NCBI GenBank assembly: GCA_023150835.1
Contig: JAKLKB010000047.1
Coordinates: forward strand, 1-43,436
Length of the DNA: 43,436 bases
Reading direction: 5' to 3'
Origin: Myxococcota bacterium
GTDB taxonomy: Bacteria; Myxococcota_C; UBA6777
Notes under the pieces: model-generated
Databases searched by the model: none
Seen by the model: the letters and a program-made list of their open reading frames with translations, nothing else
Told to the model about the DNA's origin: nothing
Translations under genes and position numbers: made by a program
Shown: positions 1 to 17,848 of the stretch, piece after piece
Numbering within the stretch: position 1 is the first letter of the stretch
Layout: each line of letters begins with the position of its first letter

Positions 1-254
1 GATATCGTATAATACGAGATCCGCCCGTTGTGTGATCGTAAGGACGTAGGGGCAGACCCCTGTGTCTGCCCAATCATAGGGCGTCTACGTGTTCTCGTTT
101 GCGGTGTACGGCACTCGGATATCGTATAATACGAGATCCGCCCGTTGTGTGATCGTAAGGACGTAGGGGCAGACACAGGGGTCTGCCCAATCATAGGGCG
201 TCTACGTGTTCTCGTTTGCGGTGTACGGCACTCGGATATCGTATAAGTCCTATC
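1..254. repeat. 117-bp tandem repeat (2 full copies plus start of a third) of a REP/MITE-like element with a GTAG-GGGCAGAC-N6-GTCTGCCC hairpin; may continue left of the window
   Basis: Units start at 1, 118 and 235 and are identical apart from the hairpin loop. The array ends in GATATCGTATAAGTCCTATC. A diverged copy lies at 38738-38849. Confidence 0.9.
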
Positions 255-284
255 CGAGAAAGAGAGGGCAAAAAAGATATCGAA

Positions 285-3200
285 TCAAAGGGGATTTGGG
301 GTGTTGGGGGAGGTGGGTTGGGGCGGATGGGGAGCAAAGCGAAAGAGGATCTTGGGGGGTGTGTAGAGGGTGGCACCGGCTTGTTTGAGGGGGGGTCTGT
401 AGACGAGGCGGATGCGGGACATGGGGGCTTTGTAGTAGCGAAAGATCTGTCCGATGGAATGGAGGCGAAGCTGCGCGAGGCGTTTGGGATCGCGGGCGTA
501 GCTGGGGGTGTAAGAGTAAGCGGGTCTTCCATAGCGGGCATAGCGTCCGTAGCGTCCGTAGTAGCGGCTGTGGGAAGAGGGGTTGTGGGGTGTGTGTGCG
601 GGGATGACGGGAGTGATCTCGACGGTGAGGTTGCCAAGGGAAGGGGCAGCGCGCAGCAAAGCGGTGAGTTGCCCGAGGATATCGCGATGGTTGTAAGGGA
701 CGTGGTAGCTGTAGCCTGTAAAGAGGAAAGGGCGGAGCATTTGAAGGGTGCCGTCGGGTTGGATCTTGTTGAAGGAGAGGGTGGATTGTCCGGAGGGTGG
801 GCAGCCGTTGTCGGAGGGAGCGGCTGCGGTGGAGGTTCGAGCAGCATAAAGGCGGGTGGTTCGGGAGTGAGAAACAGGGAGAGCGGGTCGGTAGCTGGTG
901 CCTGCTTTGTGTTGGAGGGGGCAAAGGTCAAGGATATCGGGGATCTGATCGTCGTCGGCGTCGCGGGAGAGGAACTGGGGGTAGTTGGGGATCTCTTGTC
1001 CGAGGGCAGCTTGTCGTTGGAAGGCGGCGCAGGAGATACCGTGTTGTTTGATCAGGCGGTCGTCGGTGCGGCAAAGGGCTTGGGAGGAGAGGGGGGAGAT
1101 CTCGATCTGTTCGGGTTTGACGCCGAGTTGGAGCAGGTTGTGTTGGAGGGTGTGGAGGCGTTGTTGGGTGAGGAAAGAGGCGTCGGGTTCGTTGGGTTCG
1201 GAGCCAGCGCGCAGGGAGATCTTTTGTTGGGGGGATTGTTTGAGGGAGTCGGCGATCTGGTTGAGGATGCGTTGTTGGGTGGTGTGGGTGATCATCCAGT
1301 GGCAGCGGGGGAAAGAGAAGAGTGGTCCGGTGTAGGGGACGTTGGTTTGCCAGAGTTGTGCGGGGAGAGGAGAGTGTAGGAAGTTCGGGTGAGGAGTGGG
1401 ATGCAAGCAGCGGTCGGCATGATCGGAGAGCAGGAGCCAATATCCCCATGCTTGGAGGTGTTTTTGGTTTTTGAGCAGAGCGGCGATGCGTTCGCGTAGA
1501 GCGTCGGGTTCAAAGGCGGGTTGTGTTTGGTAGGCGCGGGCATAGGAGATGGCGGCGAGTGGAGGGTTGGATTTTTGGGTATATTGGGCGGCTTGTTGGA
1601 GGAAGAAGGCTTCGCGTTTGGGGGGGTCGAGAGTGGAGAGGCTTTGGAGCCAATGGTGGTGAGCGGATTTGTGTTGTCCTTGGGCATCGTAGAGGGAGGC
1701 GATGCGTTGGTGGAGAGCGGGATCGCGGGGGGAGGCTTGTTGGAGGCGGAGGTAGAGTGGTAGAGCAGCTTGGTGGAAGCCTTTTTTTTGAGCGAGATCA
1801 GCGAGTTGTTGGAGGGTTTGTGGGGGGAGGTTGGGTGTGTTGGCGATGTACCGGATAAGGGTTTGTTGGTGGGAGGGTTCGAGTTGTGGGAGGAGGCGTT
1901 GGAAAGGGGACCAGACGGCGTCCAGTCCGTTGGTGGCGATAGAGAGGTGGAGGATGCGTCGAGCGAAAGCGCGGTCGTTGGTATCGACGCAGCAGCGTTT
2001 GGAGAGTTGTTCGAGATAAGCGGGGGTGCGTTTGTGGGGTTGCTGTTGGAGATAGCGCATCCAGAGGGTTTCGGCGCGGTCAGGGTGTCCCAGATGTTCG
2101 AGCAGGAGGGCGGTTTTGTGAAGGAGGGGTGTTTGTTCGGGTCGTTGGAGCAGCATGAGTTCAAGGATGCGCAGGAGGAGGTCGGTTTGGTTGTATTTTT
2201 CGGAGAGATAGGCAAAGAGGCGGAGGGTTTCGTAGTTTTTGGGGGATTGGAGGATCTTTTGGAGGAGTTGATGGCGGTGGGCAGGAGCGAGGGCGCTGTA
2301 GATCTGTTCGAGCCAAGGGAGATCTTCCCATTGGAAGGGTTGGGAGAAGAGTTCGGGTGCGATTTTTTGGAGGGAGAGGCGGTAAGCGTAGATGCCGATG
2401 GCTTGGGAGATAAGGGTGCGATAGATGGAGGGGAAGCGTTTTGAGGCTTGGAGGAGTTGGGAGAAGAGGAGATCGCGTTCTTTGTGAAAGGATTGGAGTT
2501 GGTAGAGCATCTGGTGGAGGGAAGTGCGCCAGAGGGGGAGGTCGGCGGGTTCGATCTCGCGCAGGGCGAGGGATTGGATGACGGCTTTGGTCCAGACTTT
2601 GGAGAGTGCTTCGCGGATGGTTTGGATATCGCGATAAGGGATGAGGCCGGAGTATTGGAGGGCGAAGAGATTTTTTTGTGTGGCGAGGAAGTATTGGACG
2701 GGGAGGTCGTCGTGGTGGTGGAGTTGGATCTTGGTGAGCCAAGCGGCGCGTTCTTTGGGGAAGAGTTGGTAAGAGGAGGTGCGTTCGATGATGTGGAGAA
2801 GTGGGGTGATGGGTTTGGGAGGATGTTGGACCAAAGAGTCGATGGCATCGGCGGTATGTGTACAATGAGCGCGTTGTTGGCAGAGCATCAAGAGGGCATC
2901 GGCGCGGGCTTGTTGATGGGCCTCGGTGTGTTCGCCAGAAAAGGCGGAGAAGAGGGCGTCTGTGGCTTGTTTGGCCCAAGGGCTTTGGAGGAGAGGTCGA
3001 AACATCTCGATCATCTCGCGGGGGTTTTCGGCGAGTTTACGGCGTTGGAGATAGGTGCGCAGTGGCTGATCAAGGCGGGAACGGACGTAAGTTTCGAGGA
3101 GTTTTTGAGAGCCGTCGCTTTCAAGGAGTAGGGCATCTTCGGCGCGTTGGAGATGTTCGCGGGTGGTTTGGTTGCGTTCGCCGCAATGCCAGCGCAGGGC

Positions 3201-5063
3201 GTAGATCTGGAGGCGCAAGACAGGGCGAAGAGAGTCGACGAGTCCGCGCATCTTGGCGGTTTTGTCGAGTTGAAGGATGCGTTTGATCGAGGGGCAGATC
3301 TGGCGTTGCCATTGTTTTTGCGGGTTGGGTTGGGCGTAGCGGGTGATCTTTTGGTAAGAGCCGCGCAGTTCGTCCCAAGGGCGGAGCGCCCAAGCAGAGG
3401 CAAGGATGGCTTGTTTGGGGGCGAGAGGTGGAGAGAGGGCGCGTTTGGCGAGAGAGGCGATCTTTTCTTCGTGTTGGGTTTGGAGGAAGAGGATGTGCAT
3501 TTGCTTGAGTTGGATGGGATCGGCCTCTGTGGCGCGTTCGAGTGCGCGGCGGGCTTTGGTGGAAAGAGTGGAAGCGCCCATCTGATCGGCGGATTGCTCG
3601 ATCTTGAATAAGGTATCCCAATCTTTGGGGTAGCGTTGGAGAGTTTGTTCGAGGAGTTTTTTGGCTTGGTTGTAGTCTTTGCGGGCTTGTTGTGTGGCAT
3701 AGCGCGCCCACATCGTCCATTCTTGGCGGCGTTGGGCGTCCCATTGGAGGACGCTGTTTCGGACGGAGAGGGCGGACCAGACGTCGGTTGTTGGGGGGGG
3801 CGGTTGGGTGTAGCGTCTGCGATAATACAGGTGTCTTCGATAGGCGGCGTAACTAGAGGAGGAAGATTGGAAGAGATGGATGGGGGTCCAGCGGCCTTTG
3901 AGGGGACGGCCAGAGCTTCGGAGGAAGCTATCGGCGAGTTGGAGCATGTGCGAAGGGCGGGCGTGTCCGTATTTGACGAGGGCTTGGATGTGTTCGTTGG
4001 CGGCGGGAAAGTCTTGTTCTTTGGAGAAGTGTTCGACGAGCCAGAGGCGGGGTTCACGCAGAGAGGGTTTGAGGCGAAGGACGCGCTTGGCGATCTGGAT
4101 GGCTTCGGCCTCTTGTTTGTTTTCGCGGTAGAGTCGGGCAAGAAACAAGAGTTCGCGGGGATCTTTGGAGCGTTTCCATGTTTTGGCGAGGCGTTCGGTG
4201 AGGGTGGGGAGATCTTTTTGATGGCGGAAGATCTCGGTTTCGCGTTCGAGGAGTTCCCAGCGCATCCAGTCGTGGAGCGTGCCGATTTTACGGGCATCTT
4301 GGATGAGTTGAAGGGCTTGGGTGTAGCGTTGTTGGTTCATCTCGATGCGGCTGAGGCGAAGGGCGAGGCGCAGACGTTCGGCGGATCTGGATTTTTCGTA
4401 GAGTGGGCGGAGGATCGCGCTTGCATCGGCCCAATACTGGTGCTGTTCGTAAAGCTGGGCGAGTCCGTGTTGTTGAGAGGAGGACCAAGTGATCTTAGAG
4501 ATCTGGGGTTGTATCCATGCCAAAGCGGCGGCATCACGGGCTTGGAGAGAGACTTCTAAGATACGCAACAGCAGTTTGGGTCGGTTGCTTTCGGGGACGA
4601 GGGGGAGGAGTTGTTGGAAGGTGGTCATGGCCTCGCGGGGGCGTTTTTGAGAGAGATGGATGGAGGCGATACGGAGCAGGGGCGGTTGTTTTTGGGTGGA
4701 GCGGTTGGCGATGTCGGTCCAAAGGCGCAAGGCTTCGGCGTGTTGTGCTTGGCGTTCGAGGGCGCGAGCGTAGACGATGGTGGCAGAGAGGTTTTGGGGA
4801 GAGCGTTGGTAGTGAGCCTTCCATTGGGCATAGAGGGCGCGGCGGGCGGGGGCCTGTTTGTGGAGGCGTAAGAGTTCGTGAAAGGCTTTTTGGGAGTAGG
4901 GTTCGTTTTGGAGGATCTCTGCCCAGCGTTTGATCAGGACAGAGGAGCGATCACCGCGCTTGAGCTGCCAGTCGTCTTCGGCATCTGCAAGGGGAAGAGA
5001 CCCCCCGTAAAAGAGGAAAAAAGCAAAAAGATTCAGCCAAGAAAAGCGCAGTATGTTTCGCAA
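285..5063 (-). CDS. Large exported TPR-repeat protein with a C-terminal TSP3-like Asp motif and two degenerate OmpA-C-like domains
   Basis: 1592-aa ORF with a TTG start and a signal-like N-terminus (..GSLPLADA). Many helical TPR-like segments, a DADDDQIPDILDLCP...DNGCP motif, and two segments resembling the OmpA-C pattern. Confidence 0.8.
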   Translation of the reverse strand: MRNILRFSWLNLFAFFLFYGGSLPLADAEDDWQLKRGDRSSVLIKRWAEILQNEPYSQKAFHELLRLHKQAPARRALYAQWKAHYQRSPQNLSATIVYARALERQAQHAEALRLWTDIANRSTQKQPPLLRIASIHLSQKRPREAMTTFQQLLPLVPESNRPKLLLRILEVSLQARDAAALAWIQPQISKITWSSSQQHGLAQLYEQHQYWADASAILRPLYEKSRSAERLRLALRLSRIEMNQQRYTQALQLIQDARKIGTLHDWMRWELLERETEIFRHQKDLPTLTERLAKTWKRSKDPRELLFLARLYRENKQEAEAIQIAKRVLRLKPSLREPRLWLVEHFSKEQDFPAANEHIQALVKYGHARPSHMLQLADSFLRSSGRPLKGRWTPIHLFQSSSSSYAAYRRHLYYRRRYTQPPPPTTDVWSALSVRNSVLQWDAQRRQEWTMWARYATQQARKDYNQAKKLLEQTLQRYPKDWDTLFKIEQSADQMGASTLSTKARRALERATEADPIQLKQMHILFLQTQHEEKIASLAKRALSPPLAPKQAILASAWALRPWDELRGSYQKITRYAQPNPQKQWQRQICPSIKRILQLDKTAKMRGLVDSLRPVLRLQIYALRWHCGERNQTTREHLQRAEDALLLESDGSQKLLETYVRSRLDQPLRTYLQRRKLAENPREMIEMFRPLLQSPWAKQATDALFSAFSGEHTEAHQQARADALLMLCQQRAHCTHTADAIDSLVQHPPKPITPLLHIIERTSSYQLFPKERAAWLTKIQLHHHDDLPVQYFLATQKNLFALQYSGLIPYRDIQTIREALSKVWTKAVIQSLALREIEPADLPLWRTSLHQMLYQLQSFHKERDLLFSQLLQASKRFPSIYRTLISQAIGIYAYRLSLQKIAPELFSQPFQWEDLPWLEQIYSALAPAHRHQLLQKILQSPKNYETLRLFAYLSEKYNQTDLLLRILELMLLQRPEQTPLLHKTALLLEHLGHPDRAETLWMRYLQQQPHKRTPAYLEQLSKRCCVDTNDRAFARRILHLSIATNGLDAVWSPFQRLLPQLEPSHQQTLIRYIANTPNLPPQTLQQLADLAQKKGFHQAALPLYLRLQQASPRDPALHQRIASLYDAQGQHKSAHHHWLQSLSTLDPPKREAFFLQQAAQYTQKSNPPLAAISYARAYQTQPAFEPDALRERIAALLKNQKHLQAWGYWLLLSDHADRCLHPTPHPNFLHSPLPAQLWQTNVPYTGPLFSFPRCHWMITHTTQQRILNQIADSLKQSPQQKISLRAGSEPNEPDASFLTQQRLHTLQHNLLQLGVKPEQIEISPLSSQALCRTDDRLIKQHGISCAAFQRQAALGQEIPNYPQFLSRDADDDQIPDILDLCPLQHKAGTSYRPALPVSHSRTTRLYAARTSTAAAPSDNGCPPSGQSTLSFNKIQPDGTLQMLRPFLFTGYSYHVPYNHRDILGQLTALLRAAPSLGNLTVEITPVIPAHTPHNPSSHSRYYGRYGRYARYGRPAYSYTPSYARDPKRLAQLRLHSIGQIFRYYKAPMSRIRLVYRPPLKQAGATLYTPPKILFRFAPHPPQPTSPNTPNPL

Positions 5064-5149: not shown

Positions 5150-8100
5150 TCAGGGCCAAACGCATCGGAAGCCGAGATCCAAGCGACGCGAAGAAGCAGA
5201 AAAGGCCCATCTTCGGGCGGCGAGGAGTTCAGCGGGCTGAGAGGACCAGCTACCACCACGGGCTTCGCGGTGGTAACAAACCTGATCAGCGGTGGTCTCG
5301 GAGGCGCAATCGCGAGTCCATTCGCGAACGTTGCCCGCGAGATCGAATACCCCAAAAGGACTGCGATCCGAGGTTTTAGAGCCGACAGATGCCGTTTTGG
5401 GTGGACGGGGGCATATTCGCTTACGTCGTTTGGGGCTGCCAAAGACAGCACGTGTGCAATCTGGAGACGTACCTGAGAAGGGAAAGATCTGTCCTTCAAA
5501 GCCACGCGCAGCTTTTTCCCATTCGAGAGAGGAAGGTAGACGCTTGTTGCGAAAGCGGCAATATGTGGCGGCTTCTTCCCATGTGACGGAGACAACGGGC
5601 TGTGTGGGTGCTGAAAAGCCCGTCTTTTGGGAGGCTGCGAGGGTCTGGCAAGCGCCTGCGTTGACGCAGATGGCATAATCGCGCCATGTCACTTCGTAGC
5701 GATCGATCCAAAAGGTCGGAAGACGCCGCCATTGGATCGGAACAGGGCTACCAAGGCCACCGTAGGGAAACCAGCCTTTGGGGACACGGCGCATGGCCTT
5801 GAGATCGGGGGGAAGGCGCAAGGGCTGCGAAGGCGGGACAAGAGCTTGTGTGGGCGGCGATGGGCGGGGCGAAACAGCAGAGCGAGACAGCGTGTGTGGG
5901 CGGCGCGTGTGAGGGCGAGATCTTCGTCGGGGTGAAGGGCGACGGCGAGGTGCAGCGGTGCGTTTTGAAGGTTGTTTGGAGCGAGGGAGAGGCGAAGTGG
6001 TGGAAAGCGAAGATCTCGGTGGTTCCGGCGAGATCCAGCGTTCGATCAGGCGTTGTGTGTGGCCGTTGTAAGAAGCCCATCCAAGGGCCGAAGCGACGGT
6101 GAGCAACAGCAGTACCCAGCCCCACCGCCATTTGCTGGCAGAGGGTGAAGCCTCGATCGCAAAAGCAACGTCTTCGTGAAAGAGAGAGGGATCGACGGAA
6201 GAGGAGGATGGACCGAAAGCAGCGAGTTCTTGGGAAGACGCGAGAGCGCGTGCGGGGTACGAGCCTGAGAGGATATCGGCACGAAATCGAGCGACGTGTT
6301 CGTCATCGTCGGGGAGCGTGGGGAAGTCGTTGAGGGCTTGGGCCAGATCAGCTACAGAGGAAGGGGGCGGGTGGTGGGCTTTCGCGGTTTTGAGCAGCGT
6401 TGGGTTAGAAGAAGGTGTTGAAAGGCTCGGTGGGATGGGCGTTGATGCGGTGAGAGGTGTGTTTGTGGGGGATGCGGTGTTTGTGGGGGATGCGTTGTTT
6501 GTGGGGGATGCGTTGTTTGTGGAGGATACGTTGTTTGTGGAAGGAGCGGAGGGATAGTCGTTTGTGGAAGGAGCGGAGGGATGGTCGTTTGTGGAGGGAG
6601 CGGGTGTGGATGGTGTGAGGAGCGAAGGTTGCGGAGCGGGGGAGGCTTGGAGGATGGCTTGTTGGTAGGAGAGGTAGGCATCGCGATCAAAGTCGGAGGT
6701 TCCTTGGTGGGGTGCGGGAGGGGCTGAGCGTGGGATGTGAGGACGAAGTAAGCCGAGGGGAGTGCTTGTTGGGGCGTGTTGGTGTGGGGCGGTTGCGGGG
6801 AGGTGGGCGGCCCCTGCAAAGACGGCTTCGGATGGGAGACTTGAGGAGGAGCCGTCAACGGCGGAAGCTGGAGCAAGCGAAGCGGCTTGGTGGATCTCTT
6901 GTTTGAGTGCATCGCGATCAAAGTCGGCAGTCCCTTGAGATGCGGGACGTTTGACCTGTGCGATTGGCGCAAGCAGGGGATCCATGAGGCTTTGTGGAGC
7001 AGGAGCTTTTGAGGGAGAGAGAAAGCCCGATGGCTCGAGAAAGAGGGAAGAGTCGGAAAGACGCGATGGATCGGGAAAGAGGGAAGAGTCGGAAAGACGC
7101 GATGGATCGGGAAAGAGGGAAGAGTCGGAAAGACGCGATGGATCGGGAGAAGTCGATGGATCGGGAGAAGCCGATGGATCGGGAGGGTGAGAGGAGCGAG
7201 ACGGAGCGGAACGTTCGAGCGACGATGACGGGCGATGGATCAAAGACAGCAAGGCGTCGCGTGCTTGTTGGGCGTCAGGGAAGCGGTCTTTTGGGTCTTT
7301 GGCGAGGAGGGTTTGGTGCCAAGGATCAAAGCCCGAGGGGAGGCGATCAAGGAGTCCTCGGTCGAGCGGGGGGCGAGGATCACGGAGGATCTGTTGGAGG
7401 ATGTGAAGGTGAGCGATCCCGTCGATCATGCGCTCGCCAACAAGGGTTTCGTAAGCGATCACCCCAAGCGCATACAGATCACTGCGGGCGTCAACGGCGC
7501 TGAGATCTTCGATCTGTTCGGGGGCCAAGTACTGGACAGCGACAGCTTCGCCGGCGTGCTGCCCCAACGTTGAAGAAAGCTGCGCAAAGCGTATCCGTGA
7601 GACACCAAAACCGCTGATTTTGCACGTCAAGATCGGGTCGTGGGCTTTATGTTGTCGGGTTTCGACCAAAAACAGATTGCTAGGCTTGAGATCGCGGTGG
7701 ATGACGCCCTGTCGATGGGCATGATCCAAGGCTTCAAGGATATCCAATAACAAAGACAGCGTGATATCAGGAGCCAGCGGGCCTTCCAAGAGTTTGGCTT
7801 GGAGAGTCGGTCCATGCAAAAGCTCCATCACAAGGGCCAATCGGCCCTCTTCTTCCACAAAGCCGTCAAACCGCACGATCGATGGATGCACCAATTGAGC
7901 GAGGAGCTCTCCTTCACGTCGAAGCAACCGCCTTGCAGCGATATCGCCCTCTCGCAAAGGCGGCAACATCTTGATCGCGAATTCTTGTTGATCCGAGTGC
8001 CGCTTTGCACGATAAACCCGCCCCATCTCCCCTTCGCCCAACAGCTCGACCAGTGTGTAGCCTCCCCACGAATCCCCAAGACCGCTGCGCAGCCCTTTTT

Positions 8101-8224
8101 GTGATGTGCTTGACGGCGCACTTTCGGGCGCAGGGGTCAACCAACTCGCGTCCGACAATCGGCCACATTGAACGCAAAAGCGGCTTTGTTTGGGATTTTC
8201 ATGACCACAAGCTTCACAACGCAT
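5150..8224 (-). CDS. Zinc-ribbon + Ser/Thr kinase-like domain + Pro/Ser linker + TM + FGE-sulfatase (SUMF1-like) domain protein
   Basis: CEACG..CVQCG; GEGEMG, AIK, HRDLKPSN, YLAPE, DLYALG; TM WGWVLLLLTVASALGW; FWIDRYEVT, RLPSSLEWEKAARG, DLAGNVREW, RGGSW, LGFRC. Confidence 0.93.
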   Translation of the reverse strand: MRCEACGHENPKQSRFCVQCGRLSDASWLTPAPESAPSSTSQKGLRSGLGDSWGGYTLVELLGEGEMGRVYRAKRHSDQQEFAIKMLPPLREGDIAARRLLRREGELLAQLVHPSIVRFDGFVEEEGRLALVMELLHGPTLQAKLLEGPLAPDITLSLLLDILEALDHAHRQGVIHRDLKPSNLFLVETRQHKAHDPILTCKISGFGVSRIRFAQLSSTLGQHAGEAVAVQYLAPEQIEDLSAVDARSDLYALGVIAYETLVGERMIDGIAHLHILQQILRDPRPPLDRGLLDRLPSGFDPWHQTLLAKDPKDRFPDAQQARDALLSLIHRPSSSLERSAPSRSSHPPDPSASPDPSTSPDPSRLSDSSLFPDPSRLSDSSLFPDPSRLSDSSLFLEPSGFLSPSKAPAPQSLMDPLLAPIAQVKRPASQGTADFDRDALKQEIHQAASLAPASAVDGSSSSLPSEAVFAGAAHLPATAPHQHAPTSTPLGLLRPHIPRSAPPAPHQGTSDFDRDAYLSYQQAILQASPAPQPSLLTPSTPAPSTNDHPSAPSTNDYPSAPSTNNVSSTNNASPTNNASPTNTASPTNTPLTASTPIPPSLSTPSSNPTLLKTAKAHHPPPSSVADLAQALNDFPTLPDDDEHVARFRADILSGSYPARALASSQELAAFGPSSSSVDPSLFHEDVAFAIEASPSASKWRWGWVLLLLTVASALGWASYNGHTQRLIERWISPEPPRSSLSTTSPLPRSKQPSKRTAAPRRRPSPRRRSRPHTRRPHTLSRSAVSPRPSPPTQALVPPSQPLRLPPDLKAMRRVPKGWFPYGGLGSPVPIQWRRLPTFWIDRYEVTWRDYAICVNAGACQTLAASQKTGFSAPTQPVVSVTWEEAATYCRFRNKRLPSSLEWEKAARGFEGQIFPFSGTSPDCTRAVFGSPKRRKRICPRPPKTASVGSKTSDRSPFGVFDLAGNVREWTRDCASETTADQVCYHREARGGSWSSQPAELLAARRWAFSASSRRLDLGFRCVWP
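7043..7181. repeat. In-frame 36-bp x3 plus 18-bp tandem repeats (PDPSRLSDSSLF) in the kinase linker
   Basis: GAGGGAAGAGTCGGAAAGACGCGATGGATCGGGA unit repeated three times. Confidence 0.9.
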
Positions 8225-8950: not shown

Positions 8951-10741
<1,791 letters not shown>

Positions 10742-10780
10742 TCCCCCGATCTATCCGACAAATCGCTCTTCTTCTGCTTT

Positions 10781-10820
10781 GAAAAACCCTCGTGATCGAA
10801 TCACGGGGGTTTTTTCGTTT
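10781..10820 (+). terminator. Intrinsic terminator of groESL
   Basis: GAAAAACCCTCGTGAT-CGA-ATCACGGGGGTTTTTTC hairpin with a T tract, 40 bp after the groEL stop. Confidence 0.88.
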
Positions 10821-10882
10821 GGGCGTGTGCGTGTGTGCGATCTTGTTCGGTGGATCGGCGTGTTGGAACTCTTGATGAGGGG

Positions 10883-10994
10883 GGAGTGCTTGGGTGTAAG
10901 TGGGGTGGAGTGCTTGGGTGTAAGTGGGGTGAAGGCTTTCGCGCACCGCAACGGAGCGAGGGGTTTTTGTGGAGTGCTTGGGTGTAAGTGGGGT
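10883..10994. repeat. Intergenic 24-bp direct repeat x3
   Basis: GGAGTGCTTGGGTGTAAGTGGGGT at 10883, 10907 and 10971. Confidence 0.9.
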
Positions 10995-11205
10995 GAAGGG
11001 CTTGGGGGGTCGGTGAGATCAAACGCGGGTGAGAAAGGTCTTGGGCTGAAACGCGGAAGGTTCGTCTATACCGCTGTCGCGTGTCTTGTGGTGAGCGAAG
11101 AAGAACAACCTCGCAAGAAAGAAACGGCTGTAGTACAAAGAGCAGGGATGTGTTTGTGCTTGAGTGAGACCGCTTTCGGTATGTACGAGTCTTGAGGAGT
11201 AAGGA

Positions 11206-11769
11206 TTGCAAGGTCACGATGAAAAGACGCTGCTTGCGAAGGCAAAGTCCGGTGATGAGCAAGCGTTTATGGCCCTCTATCAGAAGTATTATTCGACGGT
11301 CTATCGTTTTTGTCAGACCTTTGGTGGGATCGATCGAGACATCGCGAAGGATATCTTGCAAGAGTCCTTTGTTCGGGCGTTTCGTCACCTCGGCAAGTTG
11401 CGCGAAGGGCAAAAGTTTCTTTCGTGGCTATTGACGATCACACGCAACCGTTGCCTGAGCCACCTCAGCAAAGAGGAAAACTTTGGCAAAAAACATTCGG
11501 CGTGGAGTCTCGAAACGGAACTTTTTTCCGTACCCGATAACTTGGAGCAGATCGAGACAGAGCGTCAGATCGCTTTGGTTCACCAGATCATCGACGATCT
11601 GCCGAGCGGTGGAATGAAAGACTGTGTACGAGCCTTTTATATAGAAGGATTGAGCACCTCAGATATCGCGCAACGCCTCGATATCCCCAAAAGCACCGTG
11701 ACCACGCGCCTTGATCGCTTTCGCAACCGCATACGCAAGCGCCTATTGGCCCGTCTGATGGAGCTTTAA
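11206..11769 (+). CDS. ECF-type RNA polymerase sigma factor
   Basis: 187 aa. Region 2 (AFMALYQKY..DILQESFVRAF..FLSWLLTITRNRCL) and region 4 HTH (EGLSTSDIAQRLDIPKSTVTTRL). TTG start preceded by GAGGAG/AAGGA. Confidence 0.95.
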   Translation: MQGHDEKTLLAKAKSGDEQAFMALYQKYYSTVYRFCQTFGGIDRDIAKDILQESFVRAFRHLGKLREGQKFLSWLLTITRNRCLSHLSKEENFGKKHSAWSLETELFSVPDNLEQIETERQIALVHQIIDDLPSGGMKDCVRAFYIEGLSTSDIAQRLDIPKSTVTTRLDRFRNRIRKRLLARLMEL

Positions 11770-11915
11770 GATCTCCTCACTTCCGAATCAACTGCGCCAC
11801 TCCTCTCTCAAAAAGCGTTGTGCCTTCTGCTGTTTTGGTATGTTTTTGAAAGAAATCCTGCGCAAGCAGACAACACATCGAGAGAACACAAAACACTCGA
11901 CTTGAGCGAAAAAAC

Positions 11916-12977
11916 ATGAAGACCACACCCTTCGCGACCCATACCCTCGATGCCGAGATGATCGCGCAGATCTATCGCGGCGAGATATCCCACCAACACG
12001 CGCCTGATCTGTATGCGGCCTTGCACACAGAAGATGACGCTTTCGATCCTTTCCAAGCCTTTCACGCCCCCAACGAACCTCTCGAACTCGACGCTCAAGA
12101 AAGCGAAGCGATCCTTCGCTCGATCTTGCAACAGACTTCGCTTGTTTCTTCGCACTCCACTTCCGCCGCAGATGCGCCTTTTTCTGCCACAGACGCACTT
12201 CGCTCTGCCGCACCTTTGGCCGAAACGCGCCGAAATCAACATACGCGAACGTCTGATCCCTCGAAACCATCGCTGCTGCGCGATCTTTGGCAAAATTTTC
12301 GTCGCGCTTGGTTGGCTCCCCTTGCTGTGGGCATGGCTGCCGTGCTGATCTTCCCCGTTATCTCGACCATTTCGCCATCTTCGCCATCTTCGCCATCTTC
12401 GCCATCTTCGCCATCTTCGCCATCTTCGCCATCTTCGCCATCTTCAAAGACCCCGATCGCTGTTCCCAACCAGCCCTTGCCGCGTGTGATCTCGCCGACA
12501 ACACCGCGCTTGGCTGTTCCCGATATCCTGCACAAGGGAGATCGCGATCGCCTCGCTTTTTTTGCCGTCGATCTTTACCCTGCTGCTGTGCGCGCCCAAG
12601 ATCCCAAAAAAGCCCATCCCTTCCGCAACAACGCAACCCTTCATCCCGAAGATGCTCTGCTCTTTCACTTCGTCAACCTTCGGCGCGGGTATCTGTACCT
12701 TTTGCGCGAAGACGCGCTGGGTCGTTTTGAAACGCTCTATCCCTTCGATCCAAAACACGCAATCCCCCAATCTCCCGGCAAGATCACCCTTAAACAAGCC
12801 GAACAACCCATGGTCTACGTCCTTGAACCCAAGATGATCGGACGCCAACGCTTTTGGCTGCTTCATTCGCCCACCCCCCAAACCTTCCCCCAAGAACGCA
12901 ATGCCCTCTCTCCCGCCTTGCGTAAGCTTTTCCTATATGCCGATCACATCACGTTGTTTGTGCGCCAACGCGAATAG
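11916..12977 (+). CDS. Putative membrane anti-sigma factor with a C-terminal DUF4384-like domain
   Basis: Directly downstream of the ECF gene. Single TM (WLAPLAVGMAAVLIF), an SPS linker, then TLHPEDALLFHF..GYLYLL..G..ETLYP, a DUF4384-like pattern. Confidence 0.7.
   Translation: MKTTPFATHTLDAEMIAQIYRGEISHQHAPDLYAALHTEDDAFDPFQAFHAPNEPLELDAQESEAILRSILQQTSLVSSHSTSAADAPFSATDALRSAAPLAETRRNQHTRTSDPSKPSLLRDLWQNFRRAWLAPLAVGMAAVLIFPVISTISPSSPSSPSSPSSPSSPSSPSSPSSKTPIAVPNQPLPRVISPTTPRLAVPDILHKGDRDRLAFFAVDLYPAAVRAQDPKKAHPFRNNATLHPEDALLFHFVNLRRGYLYLLREDALGRFETLYPFDPKHAIPQSPGKITLKQAEQPMVYVLEPKMIGRQRFWLLHSPTPQTFPQERNALSPALRKLFLYADHITLFVRQRE
12372..12445. repeat. 9-bp microsatellite (TCGCCATCT)x8 encoding an SPS linker
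   Basis: Perfect in-frame tandem repeat just after the TM segment. Confidence 0.95.
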
Positions 12978-13177
12978 TTCGCTGCCTTTTGCGCTCCACT
13001 TCCCCTTGTCTCCCCCTCCCTCTCCAAACAAAACGAATTGCGCAACGTTTTATAGATCTTGAAGATCATCCTTCGTGTGTGTACTATCCAAGGCTGTGTG
13101 CTGTAATGTGTTGCGCAAAGATTTGTTGTGTGTTTGTTTTTTGATACGTTGTGGAGTTTGCCGTGTATCCGCCACAG

Positions 13178-14839
13178 ATGACCTTTTTGGCCTTCTGGGG
13201 GAAGCCGATGGCGCTGTTGTCAGCGCTGTTGTTGGCTGGTTGTGCATCTTCACGCGCTGTCTCGACGGAAAAGGGCTTTCGCCCACTCGCCTCTCTCCAA
13301 ACTGCCGCTGTTTTGCCCAAAAAAGGAAAAAAGATCGCCCTCTTGATCGGCGTGAATCGCTATCAAGATCGCGCATGGCATCCGTTGCGTTTTGCCGCCA
13401 AAGATGCTGCGGATCTCGCCGAAGTGCTCCGCAACCCCAAAACAGGGGGCTTTGATCAAGTCCTGCTACTCGCTGATCCCACCGCCACCACAAGAAAAGG
13501 CATCTTGCGCGCCTTTGAACGTCTGCGCCAACTGAACACCCATCCGCACGATACGCTCTTTGTGTACATCTCGGGGCATGGCACGCTTGCACGCGATCCC
13601 CAACACTCCTTGCGCCGCTACCTCGTCACGTATGACACCCAACAGCGCGATATCCACAAAAGCGCCCTCTCCATCGCACGCCTCCGCCATCACTTTGCCC
13701 AACTCAAAAGCGAGCGAAAAGTGATGTTGCTCGCCACCTGCCACTCTGGAACAGGAAAAAGCCGCCTCAATCAAACCATGCTTGCAGAACTCAAAACCAT
13801 CAAAGGCGCTTTTTTTACCCAACCGATCGAGGATTCCTCACGCGCAACCATCTTCCTCGCCGTCTGCGCTTTTGGTGAAACAGCCCGTGAATCCGCTGAA
13901 CTTCAAAACGATATCTATACTCACTACTTCATCAAAGCCCTCAAACACCGCTATGATGCCAACGGGGACGGAGCCGTCACCGTCTCCGAAGCCCACGATT
14001 ATGCCCGTGAGATGACCTACTTTCACACCAAAGGCGCACAACGCGCCTACGCAGAGTCCGATATCCTTGGCACCGATCCGATCGTCTTGTCCGGTCAAAA
14101 AAAACGCAACGGAAAGCCCGTTCTATACGCTTATGACAACCACTTCCAAGGCGTCGAAGTCCAGATTAACGGCATCCCACGCGGCTCCTTCCCAAAAGGC
14201 ATCCCTGTTCAAATGGGCCGACAACAGATCACCCTCAAAACAGGCGAACACAAACTGTTCGAAGGGATGGTCGTGTTCCAAGACGGCGAACGCATGGACG
14301 CCAAAGAGCTTTTTGAGCGCCGTGATTATCGCTTTGCCATCGCACTCAAGGCGGGTTATCAGTTCTTTCTCCAAGGCTCCTCCGCCGATATCCTCTCGCG
14401 TGAACTTCCGCTGTTTGGCGTTGAACTCAAACTACAACGCCCTTGGTCTGATCTCCCCATCGATTTCCGCTTTGAATTCGCCTTCTCCCGCAACAGTCAC
14501 AAACTTCTCGAACAGGACAACCGACCGCAAACCGTCACCGAATTCAACGTGGCCATCGCTGCGACCTATGTGTGGAAGATCCAATGGTTTTCGCTGTTTG
14601 TGGGGCCGCGTTTGAGTGCGATCTACCTTGAACGCCAATCCGATATCCACAAACAGATCAATGACTTCTTTTTCTCTTTTCAGCCCGGCTTGGTGCTTGG
14701 GGCAGAAGCGCTGCTTTTAGAAAGATGGAGTCTTTTCGCCGAGGGGCGGGTCAACTACACGTACGTGGCGACAGAGTCCGGCCCCGCACGACACCAAGGC
14801 TCTTATGAGTTCTTGGGCGGCGTTTTTGTGCATTTCTGA
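13178..14839 (+). CDS. Caspase-family (peptidase C14) lipoprotein with a PEGA-like domain and a C-terminal outer-membrane beta-barrel; start uncertain (13151/13178/13208)
   Basis: Lipobox LLAGC; KIALLIGVNRY, LRFAAKDA, YISGHG (His) and LATCHSG (Cys); DANGDGAVTVSE; PEGA-like VEVQING..RG..P; amphipathic strands ending GGVFVHF. Confidence 0.9.
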   Translation: MTFLAFWGKPMALLSALLLAGCASSRAVSTEKGFRPLASLQTAAVLPKKGKKIALLIGVNRYQDRAWHPLRFAAKDAADLAEVLRNPKTGGFDQVLLLADPTATTRKGILRAFERLRQLNTHPHDTLFVYISGHGTLARDPQHSLRRYLVTYDTQQRDIHKSALSIARLRHHFAQLKSERKVMLLATCHSGTGKSRLNQTMLAELKTIKGAFFTQPIEDSSRATIFLAVCAFGETARESAELQNDIYTHYFIKALKHRYDANGDGAVTVSEAHDYAREMTYFHTKGAQRAYAESDILGTDPIVLSGQKKRNGKPVLYAYDNHFQGVEVQINGIPRGSFPKGIPVQMGRQQITLKTGEHKLFEGMVVFQDGERMDAKELFERRDYRFAIALKAGYQFFLQGSSADILSRELPLFGVELKLQRPWSDLPIDFRFEFAFSRNSHKLLEQDNRPQTVTEFNVAIAATYVWKIQWFSLFVGPRLSAIYLERQSDIHKQINDFFFSFQPGLVLGAEALLLERWSLFAEGRVNYTYVATESGPARHQGSYEFLGGVFVHF

Positions 14840-14938
14840 TCCCTTTGCACTCGGCTGTTCTGTTGCTGTTTGGCTGCTGCGCTGCCCGTGTCGCGTGAGC
14901 GAAAAGCCCCATTGACCGAAGCCAACGAAGGAAGAAGT

Positions 14939-17848
14939 ATGCACCGTCATCTTCGCCGACACAGACGCCCTTCGTTCCGCACTGGAACACTGATCTTTTT
15001 TGCGCTTGTCCTGTCTTTTCTGGGTGCTTGCGGTACGATCTCCAACGATCGCTTTTTTGCGGGCCTTGGTCACTTGCGTGGGACGTTGCTCTTGCCAAGC
15101 GGTGAGCCCGCCCGATTCGCTCACATCGAAGTCGTCAATCTCCCTCAACTTACCGCCCAAACCGATGCCCAAGGCGACTTTCTGTTGTCCTCCGTCCCTG
15201 CGGGAAAACGCGATATCCTGTTTCGCCTAGGCGAAGAATTCGGCCTTCGCCTTCAACTCTGGATCGTTCGCGATCACACCCTTTCGCTTGAAACTCCGCA
15301 GCGCACGTTGCTGCCTTCTGCGATCCTCGAAGGCTCCGTCCAAGCGGCCCCTCGCTTCGGCGCAAAAAACATCCAGATCGCCCTCAAAGGTACTTCTCTC
15401 TCCACCCTCACCCTCGATCCACAAGGAACCTTTCGGATGCGTGGCATCCCTCCCTTGCTTCCGAACAATACAACGGCTTGCCACTCTTTCTCTATCCAAA
15501 CCGCCGCCTTTCATCCCTCTCGTCTCGATGATATCTGCCCACAGCCCGGACAGATCATCCGCCTTGAGCAACCCGTCCGACTCCAACCCCAACGCGCTTG
15601 TTTGGCCCAATCTTGCGCCCAAGACGAGATCTGCGAAGCTGGATTCTGTGTCCCTGACAACGGCGGCTCTCTCAAGATCCTCACGCCTTCCCTCCAATTT
15701 CCCACCCTCGCCTACGCTGGCGAACAACGCCAAGAACGCGAACTCCTTCAAAATACCGGCCTCGGCCCCTTGTTGATCGAATCGATCTCCCTCCACGATC
15801 CCGAACACACCTTCTCTTTGGAAGGACTTCCCTCGTTGCCTTTTCGCCTTGCTCCACAAGAAAGTCTGCGAGCCACCGTGCGCTTCTCTGTGGACTCAAA
15901 GATCCCGATGTTTGGGCTTTATCAAGCAAAGATCAGCATCTCTGCCCGTCATGAAGGCCAAGGCAAGCTGTTTTCGATCCCGCTCTCGGGCATGGTGATC
16001 GGCCAAAATGCGCCGCTTTCGCAGTGCATCCAAACCAAGATCACCGAACCCACTACCCCACCACCCCAACCCGGCACGCCTTCGGGGCTGTACGACGTCG
16101 ATCTCACCAACACATGCGACCAAGAAGTGATCCTCTCTGATATCACGGGAACTTCGCCTGTCCAAGCCTTGCTCGCCGCCGATCAACCCCAACGCTGGTT
16201 GACTTCTCTTCAACATCTCCCTTTGCGCCTTGCATCGGGCGCGACCGCTCGCGTTCAATTTCAATGGATGCCCGGCCATTACGGAACCTTCCAAGGCGAA
16301 GCCTTGCTTCGCTTTCAAAAATCCGATCAATCCGATACTTTTGTGGCCAAGTTTGCTCTTCAAGCCGAACTGCGGCCCCCCAGCGTTATCCTCCCCCACG
16401 ATATCATCTCGCTCGGACATCTTGGGCCGGGTGATACCCGTTACGCTTTTTTGCCGATCACTCTCTCCGAAGCCAAACGCTCCCTCACCTACGCACAAGT
16501 CGATATCCTCACGGCTTTTGGAGGCCGCGCAACCCAGTTTCGCACTGAGCCTTTTGTCCCTCGGCTTGAGCAACAAAGCCACCAACATATCCTGACCTTC
16601 GTCTATACTGCCCCTTCACTCCAAGGGCGCGATGAAGCGTGGCTGCTTTTGCGTGGTCTCTCCGACCTCGGCGGATATCCTTACGCCGTCCAAATACAGG
16701 CCCAGATCACCCAACAACCTCTCCCACAGATCGCCCCCCGCCAACACATCGCCGCGACGTATGCTTGTGCTTCTCCTGAAACGCCCCTCTTGCTTTCCAA
16801 TCCCTCCGATACACCGCTCACCCTTCGCCAGATCTCCTTGCCGAACGCACCCACCAATGACTTCGTTTTGCGCTTGCCCACACTTCCCCTGACTCTTCCA
16901 CCCAAAGAGTCGCGCACCGTGGCGTGGGTGCGCTTTACTCCCCCTTCCCTCGGCAATCTTCAAGCCTTCCGCAGTTTCGCCACCCTTCAACTTGATGGCT
17001 TCGATGCACAACGATCGCCGTTTTCTTTGCGCTCTACCCTCCAAGCCTCTTCAGGGTTCCCCGCGCTGCGCACCTACCCGATGCGAAAGCTCCAAGATGC
17101 CCATGTGGTGGTCTATATCGACCCCTCGATCGAGACGCTCACAGCCTCTTTCGATCTCAAACAACGCCTGCTTGAACTCTTTTCTCAACTCAAACAAGAA
17201 GGCGTCACCTTGCGCTTTTATCGCGCTTCGCTCCAAGCGCCCCAAGCACTCGCCAGTTATGAACAGCTTTGGCTCATCGATCGCGATATCCGTTCCCAAG
17301 GACTGGCCGCCCTTTCCAAAACCCTGTCCTCTTTGCGCGATGCCGATATCCAAACCTATGGTGCCGCGAGACCAGCCCTCGCACTCGTTGTATCGGCCCG
17401 AGACGATGCCTCTGCTTTCTCCATTCAACGCTATCTCCCCCCCGCTCAAGAGGATCCCTCGTGGCTGCTGTTTTCGGCGATCCCCTCCCAAACCTGTTCC
17501 TCTCAACTTTCCGCTTCAACGCGCTATCTCGAAAGTACATACGCAGGAAGCGGCCTTGCCTTCGACCTTTGTGCGATGCTTCAACCGCGTGGCTTGCTCA
17601 TCCTCAATTCTTGGATCGCAGAGATCAAAGCGGCTTTTCTTGGCCAGCGCACTCGCTTTCATCTCCACCAAACACCCGACCTCAGCACGCTCTCTCTCAA
17701 ATACGCCGAGGCTCTTCTTACGCAAAACCTCCAATGGTCCTTCGATCCCACCCTTGCCCAGATATCCCTGTCTTCTGTTCTTCCTCTCCACCCCGAACAT
17801 CCATCCCTTGAAGCCTCCTTTTTTACGCCCTGCGCCCCCTTGCCCTAA
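14939..17848 (+). CDS. Large lipoprotein with carboxypeptidase-regulatory-like and Ig-like (choice-of-anchor D/ASH-like) domains and a degenerate vWA-like C-terminus
   Basis: Basic N-region plus LGAC lipobox; TDAQGDFLLSSVPAG; Cys-rich CLAQSCAQDEICEAGFC; repeated LxNxxxxPLxI..LPxxLAP..VxF motifs; VVVYIDPS..LALVVS..TRYL..DLC. Confidence 0.75.
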   Translation: MHRHLRRHRRPSFRTGTLIFFALVLSFLGACGTISNDRFFAGLGHLRGTLLLPSGEPARFAHIEVVNLPQLTAQTDAQGDFLLSSVPAGKRDILFRLGEEFGLRLQLWIVRDHTLSLETPQRTLLPSAILEGSVQAAPRFGAKNIQIALKGTSLSTLTLDPQGTFRMRGIPPLLPNNTTACHSFSIQTAAFHPSRLDDICPQPGQIIRLEQPVRLQPQRACLAQSCAQDEICEAGFCVPDNGGSLKILTPSLQFPTLAYAGEQRQERELLQNTGLGPLLIESISLHDPEHTFSLEGLPSLPFRLAPQESLRATVRFSVDSKIPMFGLYQAKISISARHEGQGKLFSIPLSGMVIGQNAPLSQCIQTKITEPTTPPPQPGTPSGLYDVDLTNTCDQEVILSDITGTSPVQALLAADQPQRWLTSLQHLPLRLASGATARVQFQWMPGHYGTFQGEALLRFQKSDQSDTFVAKFALQAELRPPSVILPHDIISLGHLGPGDTRYAFLPITLSEAKRSLTYAQVDILTAFGGRATQFRTEPFVPRLEQQSHQHILTFVYTAPSLQGRDEAWLLLRGLSDLGGYPYAVQIQAQITQQPLPQIAPRQHIAATYACASPETPLLLSNPSDTPLTLRQISLPNAPTNDFVLRLPTLPLTLPPKESRTVAWVRFTPPSLGNLQAFRSFATLQLDGFDAQRSPFSLRSTLQASSGFPALRTYPMRKLQDAHVVVYIDPSIETLTASFDLKQRLLELFSQLKQEGVTLRFYRASLQAPQALASYEQLWLIDRDIRSQGLAALSKTLSSLRDADIQTYGAARPALALVVSARDDASAFSIQRYLPPAQEDPSWLLFSAIPSQTCSSQLSASTRYLESTYAGSGLAFDLCAMLQPRGLLILNSWIAEIKAAFLGQRTRFHLHQTPDLSTLSLKYAEALLTQNLQWSFDPTLAQISLSSVLPLHPEHPSLEASFFTPCAPLP

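Follow-up and report, generated by a model that had tools for sequence, protein, structure and literature searches.

The window analysed here, 43,436 nucleotides of contig JAKLKB010000047.1 from a Myxococcota bacterium (assembly GCA_023150835.1), contains four co-oriented genes encoding a sigma factor of the extracytoplasmic function (ECF) type, a single-pass anti-sigma-like protein, a lipoprotein that joins a caspase-like (C14) protease to an outer-membrane barrel, and a further, larger lipoprotein (Table 1). We are highly confident of this domain anatomy and of the gene set being a functional unit. Our preferred but tentative reading, which we hold to be plausible without quite expecting it to be correct, is a protease-gated sigma switch in which the outer-membrane caspase would act as the site-1 protease, cutting the anti-sigma and thereby freeing the sigma factor. 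We infer the signal and the cleavage steps, and likewise the periplasmic orientation of the protease and the autoregulation of the sigma gene.

Gene linkage and the caspase-barrel protease

The arrangement of these genes was surveyed in two sets of loci, one anchored on the caspase (best 80 of 170 confirmed genome stretches) and the other on the sigma factor (best 80 of 172 confirmed stretches, 66 of them with at least 2600 bp downstream). Based on tblastn, 71 of the 80 caspase-anchored loci have the sigma gene upstream of the caspase gene and in the same orientation; in the remaining nine the caspase is within 700 bp of a contig end, and the arrangement is therefore found in 71/71 informative loci, far beyond what chance would give. 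From the sigma side, the DUF4384-type anti-sigma and the caspase are both present in 54/66 loci, both missing in 12/66 and discordant in none. These figures are counts and not statistics, because the loci are mutually related and the family itself supplied the profile. The linkage of the three genes, whose absence a first-pass annotation of this DNA had named as grounds for refuting its proposed signalling module, is thus conserved across genomes. In the 12 loci that have neither partner downstream (L118, L128, L130, L137, L141, L147, L153, L155, L156, L164, L166 and L167), the sigma factor is 38–42% identical to that of the window and looks like a sister subgroup with other partners. The caspase-barrel gene was also found in 6/6 genomes of the source's GTDB phylum (the only six in the collection examined), and the closest public caspase proteins, at 97% and 82% protein identity, come from Myxococcota metagenome-assembled genomes.

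The caspase-barrel protein, for which ATG 13178 is the likelier start, matches Pfam Peptidase_C14 (E = 1.7e-14; 54.5 bits versus a cut-off of 21.4), a family also matched by 61 of 64 relatives. Asp85 (13403–13405) and the dyad residues His143 in ISGHG (13577–13579) and Cys197 in ATCHSG (13739–13741) are invariant in 64/64 relatives. The AlphaFold2 (AF2) model (predicted local distance difference test, pLDDT, 84.7) consists of a caspase domain (residues 61–315), a beta-sandwich (324–383) and eight long strands (395–561). With Foldseek, the front part of the model retrieved MALT1 caspase-Ig3, Geobacter GSU0716 and metacaspases (E from 1e-7 to 3e-11), and the back part retrieved the 8-stranded barrels NspA (TMt 0.82, root-mean-square deviation 2.7) and OmpA. 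The best PDB match by sequence was the yeast metacaspase Yca1 (E = 6.3e-4), in which Asp85 is aligned to the Asp of the C-I-N-D motif; searching the PDB with a profile of the 64-sequence caspase alignment gave 0 matches at E ≤ 0.001, and NCBIfam NF047832 (caspase, EACC1-associated type) scored 97.1 bits, below its cut-off of 140. An EF-hand-like loop lies within the caspase domain; D269, D273, G274, A275 and E280 of this loop are invariant in the 64 relatives, and it aligns weakly to a polcalcin EF-hand (E = 0.13).

Both ends of the protein carry envelope signals. The N-terminal segment MTFLAFWGKPMALLSALLLAGC agrees with the lipobox consensus [LVI][ASTVI][GAS]C and is predicted by AF2 to form a helix at residues 13–29, followed by a disordered tether (residues 32–60; pLDDT <50 at 32–43). 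The C-terminus, VFVHF, ends in a Phe that is invariant in a 16-sequence alignment and present in at least 90% of the 64 relatives, and the combination of eight strands with a C-terminal aromatic residue places the barrel in the small outer-membrane class of OmpA, NspA and OmpX. Pfam OMP_b-brl and OMP_b-brl_2 were matched by 7/64 and 3/64 relatives, respectively, and neither by the window protease. Sequence, the 64-relative alignment, AF2 and Foldseek therefore agree with the first-pass annotation on the LAGC lipobox, the His/Cys dyad at 13577 and 13739 and the barrel ending in Phe, and its view of the protease as exported and outer-membrane-anchored in design is supported by the export signal, lipobox and barrel. 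Its PEGA-like domain was not recovered: Pfam PEGA (PF08308) was matched by 1/64 relatives (E = 5.2e-5) and not by the window protein, and the fold at this place is a small beta-sandwich. To our knowledge, both ends of even-stranded barrels are periplasmic in all known cases; the protease domain would therefore sit beneath the outer membrane, doubly anchored, and its catalytic domain should face the periplasm.

Table 1 Features of the four-gene set, with coordinates in the window
Feature	Position	Strand	Basis
ECF (group 4) sigma-70 factor, 187 aa, TTG start	11206..11769	+	Pfam, TIGR02937, orthologue linkage
Promoter-like bipartite motif TGAGACC-N15-GAGTCT, candidate autoregulated ECF promoter	11165..11192	+	Conserved in window clade
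Single-pass anti-sigma-like protein, 353 aa	11916..12977	+	Alignment, AF2, hydropathy, Pfam matches in relatives
Transmembrane helix, residues 121–149, Arg-Arg on N-terminal (cytoplasmic) side	12276..12362	+	Hydropathy, AF2
(Ser-Pro-Ser)8 repeat in periplasmic linker	12372..12443	+	Sequence
Lys207-Gly208, candidate cleavage site, seven residues before first strand of C-terminal domain	12534..12539	+	Alignments
DUF4384-type beta-sandwich, residues 210–353	12543..12974	+	pLDDT ~95; Pfam DUF4384 in clade relatives
C14 caspase-like protease with lipoprotein signal and C-terminal 8-stranded outer-membrane barrel, 562 aa	13151..14839	+	Pfam, alignment, AF2, Foldseek
Lipobox L-L-A-G-C (Cys31 at 13241–13243)	13229..13243	+	Sequence; Cys31 in ≥90% of 64 relatives
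Lys41-Gly42 in tether between lipid anchor and caspase domain	13271..13276	+	K-G in 63/64 relatives
Caspase (C14) domain, residues 61–315	13331..14095	+	Pfam; invariant Asp85/His143/Cys197; PDB sequence match
EF-hand-like loop D-A-N-G-D-G-A-V-T-V-S-E, residues 269–280, within caspase domain	13955..13990	+	Alignment
Small beta-sandwich between protease and barrel, residues 324–383	14120..14299	+	AF2; MALT1 caspase-Ig3 tops Foldseek list
Eight-stranded beta-barrel ending in Phe562	14333..14836	+	AF2 strands 395–561; NspA/OmpA
Lipoprotein, 992 aa, likely start ATG 14939, lipobox FLGAC 15017–15031	14870..17848	+	Pfam/NCBIfam; N-terminus conserved

Anti-sigma, sigma factor and neighbouring genes

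The second gene product is predicted to consist of a cytoplasmic helical N-terminal domain, a transmembrane helix, a disordered periplasmic linker and a C-terminal DUF4384-type beta-sandwich. Its AF2 model (38-sequence alignment, mean pLDDT 71) has three N-terminal helices, a disordered stretch, the helix at 121–149, a disordered linker at 153–203 and a well-defined sandwich at 210–353 (pLDDT ~95). Hydropathy gives a single hydrophobic helix with its peak at residue 131; a single such peak, at residues 82–131, was found in 59/64 open reading frames (ORFs, at least 200 aa) located between sigma and caspase at related loci, and a hydrophobic peak in 131/134 database representatives. Sequence and AF2 prediction thus both give the topology of a membrane anti-sigma, with one transmembrane helix, the N-terminus inside and the C-terminus outside.

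Family membership was assessed through relatives. Pfam DUF4384 (PF14326, gathering cut-off 27 bits) was matched above the cut-off by the clade relatives L006 (46.1 bits) and L054 (28.1) and below it by L005 (26.1), and these three match the window protein by phmmer at E values from 1.5e-19 to 3.3e-28; at E ≤ 0.01, DUF4384 was found in 6/38 aligned orthologues. Because the link runs through these relatives, the term DUF4384-like is valid by transitive homology only. The first-pass description of a DUF4384-like protein with a single transmembrane helix therefore holds for the helix directly and for the domain through relatives, and does not extend to a direct Pfam match of the window protein. 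A fold search with the model returned weak Ig-like PDB matches alone (RhoGDI and PEBP, TM ~0.4) and no close solved relative, and a word-based search for larger proteins containing the C-terminal domain in fused form yielded nine orthologues and no fusion, which is weak evidence.

Near the N-terminus, a H-x4-C-x2-C motif, whose spacing exceeds that of the classical zinc anti-sigma motif by one residue, was found in 52/64 orthologue ORFs and 103/134 representatives, and Pfam zf-HC2 was matched by 1/38 orthologues (E = 0.0041). The canonical H-x3-C-x2-C is present in three anti-sigma paralogues of the same genome. Together with the topology, these motifs support the earlier assignment of the middle protein as an anti-sigma. 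The H-x3-C-x2-C motif of class I and zinc anti-sigma domains (ASD, ZAS) was looked for in the window protein itself, which has no His/Cys motif; the window clade has lost it.

The first gene encodes an ECF sigma factor, as previously annotated, with regions sigma2 and sigma4 only: Pfam Sigma70_r2 (E = 6.7e-15, 55.1 bits), Sigma70_r4_2 (E = 9.5e-7, 28.8 bits) and NCBIfam TIGR02937 sigma70-ECF (84 bits versus a cut-off of 42.9) were all matched, and no NCBIfam equivalog model reached its cut-off. The promoter-like motif before this gene has a Myxococcaceae form at the same offset, GGCC-N17-GTCT. Across 70 upstream regions, the pattern G[AG]CC-N15-19-GTC[TA] was found between −100 and +10 of the sigma start in 38, mostly at −36 to −38, compared to 3/70 in a control window and a mean of 2.9 (maximum 8) in shuffles; the pattern was picked after viewing the alignment and the upstream sequences are mutually related. 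The motif is accordingly a candidate for autoregulation of the sigma gene. We also searched for the canonical ECF promoter (GGAAC...CGT), and rejected it: [TG]GAAC...CGT occurs in 0/70 upstream regions and a looser GGAA[CT]... form in 2/70. Elsewhere in the genome, TGAGACC-N14-17-GAGTC occurs in three places: within an ORF, at a site that does not obviously precede any gene, and (L084, C146:63952-63979) 109 nt 5′ of a 339-aa ORF that could be a further target of the sigma factor. These sites did not define a regulon.

In metatranscriptomic data from a single activated-sludge sample (four libraries), contigs span the sigma/anti-sigma junction in 4/4 libraries, the anti-sigma/caspase junction in 1/4 and the caspase/fourth gene junction in 4/4. 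DNA carry-over is possible and contigs are no proof of single transcripts, so the bridging is a weak hint only. These contigs break at the (Ser-Pro-Ser)8 repeat of the anti-sigma gene. In the four libraries none covers 10757–11013 within the spacer between groEL and the sigma gene; three of the four start at 11213–11222, from which nothing is concluded because contigs cannot show transcript ends.

The fourth gene encodes a lipoprotein with a CarboxypepD_reg-like N-terminal domain and Ig-like domains, for which Pfam and NCBIfam matches are weak in the window protein and clear in relatives. A homologue lies 3′ of the caspase, on the + strand, in 73 of the 75 loci that extend 1200 bp or more beyond it; this count includes one self-match (L076), as several query sequences were drawn from the loci. 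By its recurrence, the fourth gene belongs to the conserved set. The stretch immediately following the lipid-anchored Cys is itself conserved among these lipoproteins, reading C-G-N-L-E-N-A-P-F-R-V-G-T-V-H-G in Myxococcaceae and C-G-T-I-S-N-D-R-F-F in the window (15017–15090).

The four genes follow groEL, and the ORF listing has the first three exactly where the first-pass annotation had placed three co-oriented adjacent genes (11206–14839, + strand). groEL (8972–10741) is separately terminated, with a hairpin and T-run at ~10790–10815, upstream of the sigma gene. The spacer between this terminator and the sigma gene contains three direct copies of GGAGTGCTTGGGTGTAAGTGGGGTG (window 10883–11006; 83–100% identity over 36 nt) with start-to-start spacings of 24 and 64. 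An unrelated ornithine carbamoyltransferase gene begins at 17921, 3′ of the set. The G+C content of the DNA is ~55%. Further upstream, positions 1–4000 show a very strong GC skew (+0.46 to +0.49) across a minus-strand TPR-repeat ORF of 1592 aa (285–5063), and a 1024-aa protein encoded at 5150–8224 (−) combines a Ser/Thr protein kinase domain with a C-terminal FGE-sulfatase-type domain.

Candidate cleavage sites and possible mechanisms

A Lys-Gly pair recurs in both the anti-sigma and the protease, in each case in a low-pLDDT and probably flexible segment. In the anti-sigma, the Lys is present in 38/38 and the Gly in 36/38 aligned orthologues, with the consensus W-D-G-x-K-G, and in 119/120 and 120/122 aligned representatives, respectively; in the protease tether, the consensus among relatives is G-E-K-G-G-L-V-P, and the window reads T-E-K41-G42-F. 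Such a basic residue at P1 would fit an enzyme of the metacaspase type.

The same genome contains related gene sets. Approximately six further triads of a sigma factor, a transmembrane DUF4384-like protein and a caspase were found on contigs C225, C75, C234 (two), C113 (weak sigma match, 3e-4) and C231 (divergent caspase). Pfam recognized the sigma, DUF4384 and C14 in C225 and C75; in the two C234 triads, whose sigma factors were not included in this search, it recognized C14 with a sub-threshold DUF4384 in one and C14 only in the other. The anti-sigma paralogues (L088–L092) have linkers made of tandem repeats of differing sequence, with 16–20 aa Lys/Arg/Pro-rich units in 4/6 paralogues; K-G or R-G occupies the Lys207-Gly208 position, after these repeat-rich and often basic (Lys/Arg) linkers, and one paralogue, L089, matches DUF4384 directly (29.5 bits, cut-off 27). 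Among 11 paralogous caspases, the Asp85 equivalent and S-G-H were present in nine, the Cys in eight and the EF-hand-like loop in eight, and 4/6 triad caspases end in Phe. Seven or so triads in one genome suggest a general sensory device and not a one-off.

Profile searches of this genome returned nine matches to Pfam DUF4384 and 11 to Peptidase_C14; the window's own anti-sigma and caspase were missed by both searches, so both totals are underestimates. All nine DUF4384 matches lie within ~2 kb of a C14 match, two of them sharing an open frame with it (505 and 581 aa). One cluster (L087, contig C203:20000-37000) holds four caspase-domain ORFs, two of them also with a DUF4384 match in the same open frame, together with two DUF4384-like ORFs (272–289 aa, with an N-terminal hydrophobic peak), and has no ECF sigma nearby. 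DUF4384 is also an accessory domain of cyanobacterial orthocaspases.

Under the preferred reading, the sigma factor would be held at the inner membrane by the cytoplasmic N-terminal domain of the anti-sigma. An envelope cue, possibly involving Ca2+, would lead the protease to cut the anti-sigma at or near G-x-Lys207-Gly208, at the boundary of linker and domain (site 1); the protease may also cut the matching Lys41-Gly42 of its own tether. An RseP-type site-2 protease would then remove the stub, and the freed sigma factor would transcribe from the promoter-like motif before its own gene. The genome encodes an M50 site-2 protease (Peptidase_M50, 216.9 bits). Besides this gene, the reading draws support from the linkage of the genes, the paralogous triads, the recurrent pairing of DUF4384 with caspases, the Lys-Gly pair common to anti-sigma and protease, the metacaspase-like sequence of the protease and, weakly, the bridging RNA contigs. 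Complex prediction for caspase residues 44–392 with anti-sigma residues 153–353, both with alignments, scored 0.12 and 0.01 versus a mark of 0.32, and was used neither for nor against an interaction.

Several observations weigh against this switch. In this species, a cut at Lys207 would leave a periplasmic stub of ~55 residues, which is long for an RseP-type substrate. Lys specificity is itself uncertain: although the C-I-N-D Asp with which Asp85 is aligned presumably lines the S1 pocket of Arg/Lys-specific metacaspases, the second acidic S1 residue, presumably the Asp two residues before the catalytic Cys, is Ala195 in this orthologue group and Asp in the same-genome paralogues. An alternative role for the Lys-Gly pair would be to cap the domain structurally or to act as a sorting signal. 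On the anti-sigma side, the window protein matches no Pfam family at E < 0.1, DUF4384 included, and no NCBIfam model, and it lacks the Cys motif that most orthologues carry. Nor is the association of DUF4384 with caspases universal: in control genomes it was matched in Thermus, Deinococcus and Thermotoga, and Peptidase_C14 in Synechococcus only. The genes of the window are loosely spaced (146 bp between sigma and anti-sigma, 173–200 bp between anti-sigma and caspase), unlike the tightly coupled counterparts in Myxococcaceae, which abut or overlap. Lastly, conserved adjacency is equally expected if the protease gene is a target of the sigma factor.

This last point leads to an alternative that we consider unlikely, in which the sigma/anti-sigma pair senses an unrelated periplasmic cue via DUF4384, the anti-sigma is degraded by other proteases, and the caspase-barrel and fourth lipoprotein are the genes switched on, serving for example envelope remodelling, surface-protein processing or a cell-death programme. 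ECF sigma factors usually adjoin the genes they control, and all four genes could be one transcription unit because the only promoter-like motif found precedes the sigma gene; the bridging of gene junctions by RNA-library contigs points the same way. The sigma-less caspase/DUF4384 cluster on C203 is further in its favour, as these proteases must therefore have work unrelated to sigma release. What such an output would leave unexplained is that the sensor of the anti-sigma is the very domain fused to caspases elsewhere in the genome, that Lys-Gly is common to the anti-sigma and the protease tether, and that anti-sigma and caspase are gained and lost jointly (54 both, 12 neither, 0 discordant). 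Less probable still is a non-proteolytic transducer of the FecA/FecR kind, with the outer-membrane protein binding DUF4384 and conveying a conformational signal, another protease making the site-1 cut, and the caspase activity serving self-processing or acting on the fourth lipoprotein. Its layout of barrel, periplasmic anti-sigma domain and ECF sigma would mirror cell-surface signalling, Lys-Gly in the protease's own tether fits self-processing, and the fourth lipoprotein is co-conserved; set against this are a His/Cys dyad invariant in 64/64 relatives, a barrel of only eight strands with no plug or TonB-type part, and a Lys-Gly pair that is kept in the anti-sigma too.

We regard as improbable a fourth arrangement, in which the anti-sigma would use its DUF4384 domain as a pseudo-substrate or chaperone to silence the protease, as securin does for separase, and a cue destroying the anti-sigma would release sigma factor and protease activity together. 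DUF4384 recurs beside or fused to caspases, and relatives in the fold class are regulated by bound inhibitors, separase–securin among them, according to the accessible part of a published account (PMC11506125); direct support is lacking, however, and a separate trigger encoded outside the module would be needed. The protease-gated switch might, conversely, be one case of a widespread signalling class, a generalization we find doubtful: an outer-membrane, Ca2+-responsive metacaspase-like protease would cut after the Lys of G-x-K-G, starting with its own tether and proceeding to an anti-sigma tipped with DUF4384, releasing a dedicated ECF sigma, with DUF4384 as a general substrate-docking domain for bacterial caspase homologues, including Csx30 of the craspase system discussed below, and with seven parallel channels per genome possible.

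Comparison with known systems

A paradigm for regulated release of a sigma factor is found in Escherichia coli, where sigmaE is held on the single-pass anti-sigma RseA, which is cut in the periplasm at site 1 by DegS and then at site 2 by the M50 protease RseP. The present module resembles it in the single-pass anti-sigma and in the M50 protease gene of the genome; DegS, by contrast, is a PDZ-containing serine protease of the inner membrane, whereas the candidate site-1 enzyme here is an outer-membrane cysteine protease whose gene belongs to the set. In FecA-FecR-FecI, an outer-membrane barrel, a periplasm-spanning anti-sigma and an ECF sigma are likewise encoded together, but FecA is a 22-stranded TonB-dependent transporter without a protease, and the barrel here has eight strands and would serve as an anchor. 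With metacaspases, orthocaspases and MALT1 the protease shares the C14 fold and the SGHG/CHSG-type dyad motifs, and with MALT1 caspase-Ig3 also the order of a caspase followed by an Ig-like domain; it differs from all of these in its lipoprotein signal, the EF-hand-like loop within the domain and the fused outer-membrane barrel.

As far as the accessible parts of the literature go, DdvS/DdvA of Myxococcus xanthus is the closest published system. It pairs an ECF sigma with a transmembrane zinc-type anti-sigma that carries a periplasmic caspase-fold module, and its authors proposed an autoproteolytic caspase-like cut followed by RseP (PMC11506125). Both systems have an ECF sigma, a membrane anti-sigma and a caspase-fold module of His-Cys protease type that is, or in the present case probably is, periplasmic, in the same broad lineage. 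The first-pass annotation mentioned neither DdvS/DdvA nor the fourth gene, the EF-hand-like loop, the common Lys-Gly pair or the paralogous triads. In the portions of that paper available, however, the TPR-CHAT module of DdvA acts in cis within the anti-sigma, as a dimer with an incomplete active site, whereas here a separate, outer-membrane-anchored C14 enzyme stands beside an anti-sigma that has DUF4384 and ends in a 145-residue beta-sandwich, which sets it apart from the DdvA type.

In the craspase system, Csx29 cuts the linker of Csx30, which binds RpoE, and one group of Csx30 proteins has DUF4384 at the C-terminus, according to the available part of the report (bioRxiv 10.1101/2022.08.17.504292). 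The analogy with Csx29/Csx30 drawn by the first-pass annotation is thus closer than it had supposed, given that some Csx30 proteins end in the domain type seen here (bioRxiv 10.1101/2022.08.17.504292). Craspase as described there is cytoplasmic and RNA-guided, with TPR-CHAT on Cas7-11, while the present parts are exported, combine C14 with a membrane barrel and have no CRISPR. No CHAT match was found in the window protease, and the CHAT matches found in 8/64 relatives overlap with their C14 region; no defence island adjoins the module, and PADLOC returned a generic caspase model only. For ECF54, genes for CHAT, carboxypeptidase and subtilase proteins occur in the neighbourhood, and gene context has led to the proposal that a caspase-fold protease encoded nearby controls the group (PMC8999054). 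In the accessible text, ECF54 is described without an anti-sigma and with CHAT (PMC8999054), in contrast to the clear membrane anti-sigma and C14 protease here.

As described in the available parts of these sources, none of DdvA, craspase and ECF54 has a C14 protease that acts in trans and is joined to an outer-membrane barrel. The words caspase, DUF4384, CHAT and peptidase do not occur in the main text of the ECF reclassification (PMC7826278), whose supplementary group descriptions may list this gene context, and our literature search found no description of this module or of the lipoprotein/EF-hand/C14/barrel combination.

Bacterial caspase homologues are numerous, and almost none has a known natural substrate. 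The module offers a precise prediction in this respect: the substrate would be the anti-sigma, the site Lys207-Gly208 and the read-out the sigma factor's own promoter. If this is true, an outer-membrane cysteine protease would join the site-1 proteases that gate ECF sigma factors, a function could be assigned to DUF4384, and the present module, craspase and DdvA would be united as caspase-fold proteases that free sigma factors.

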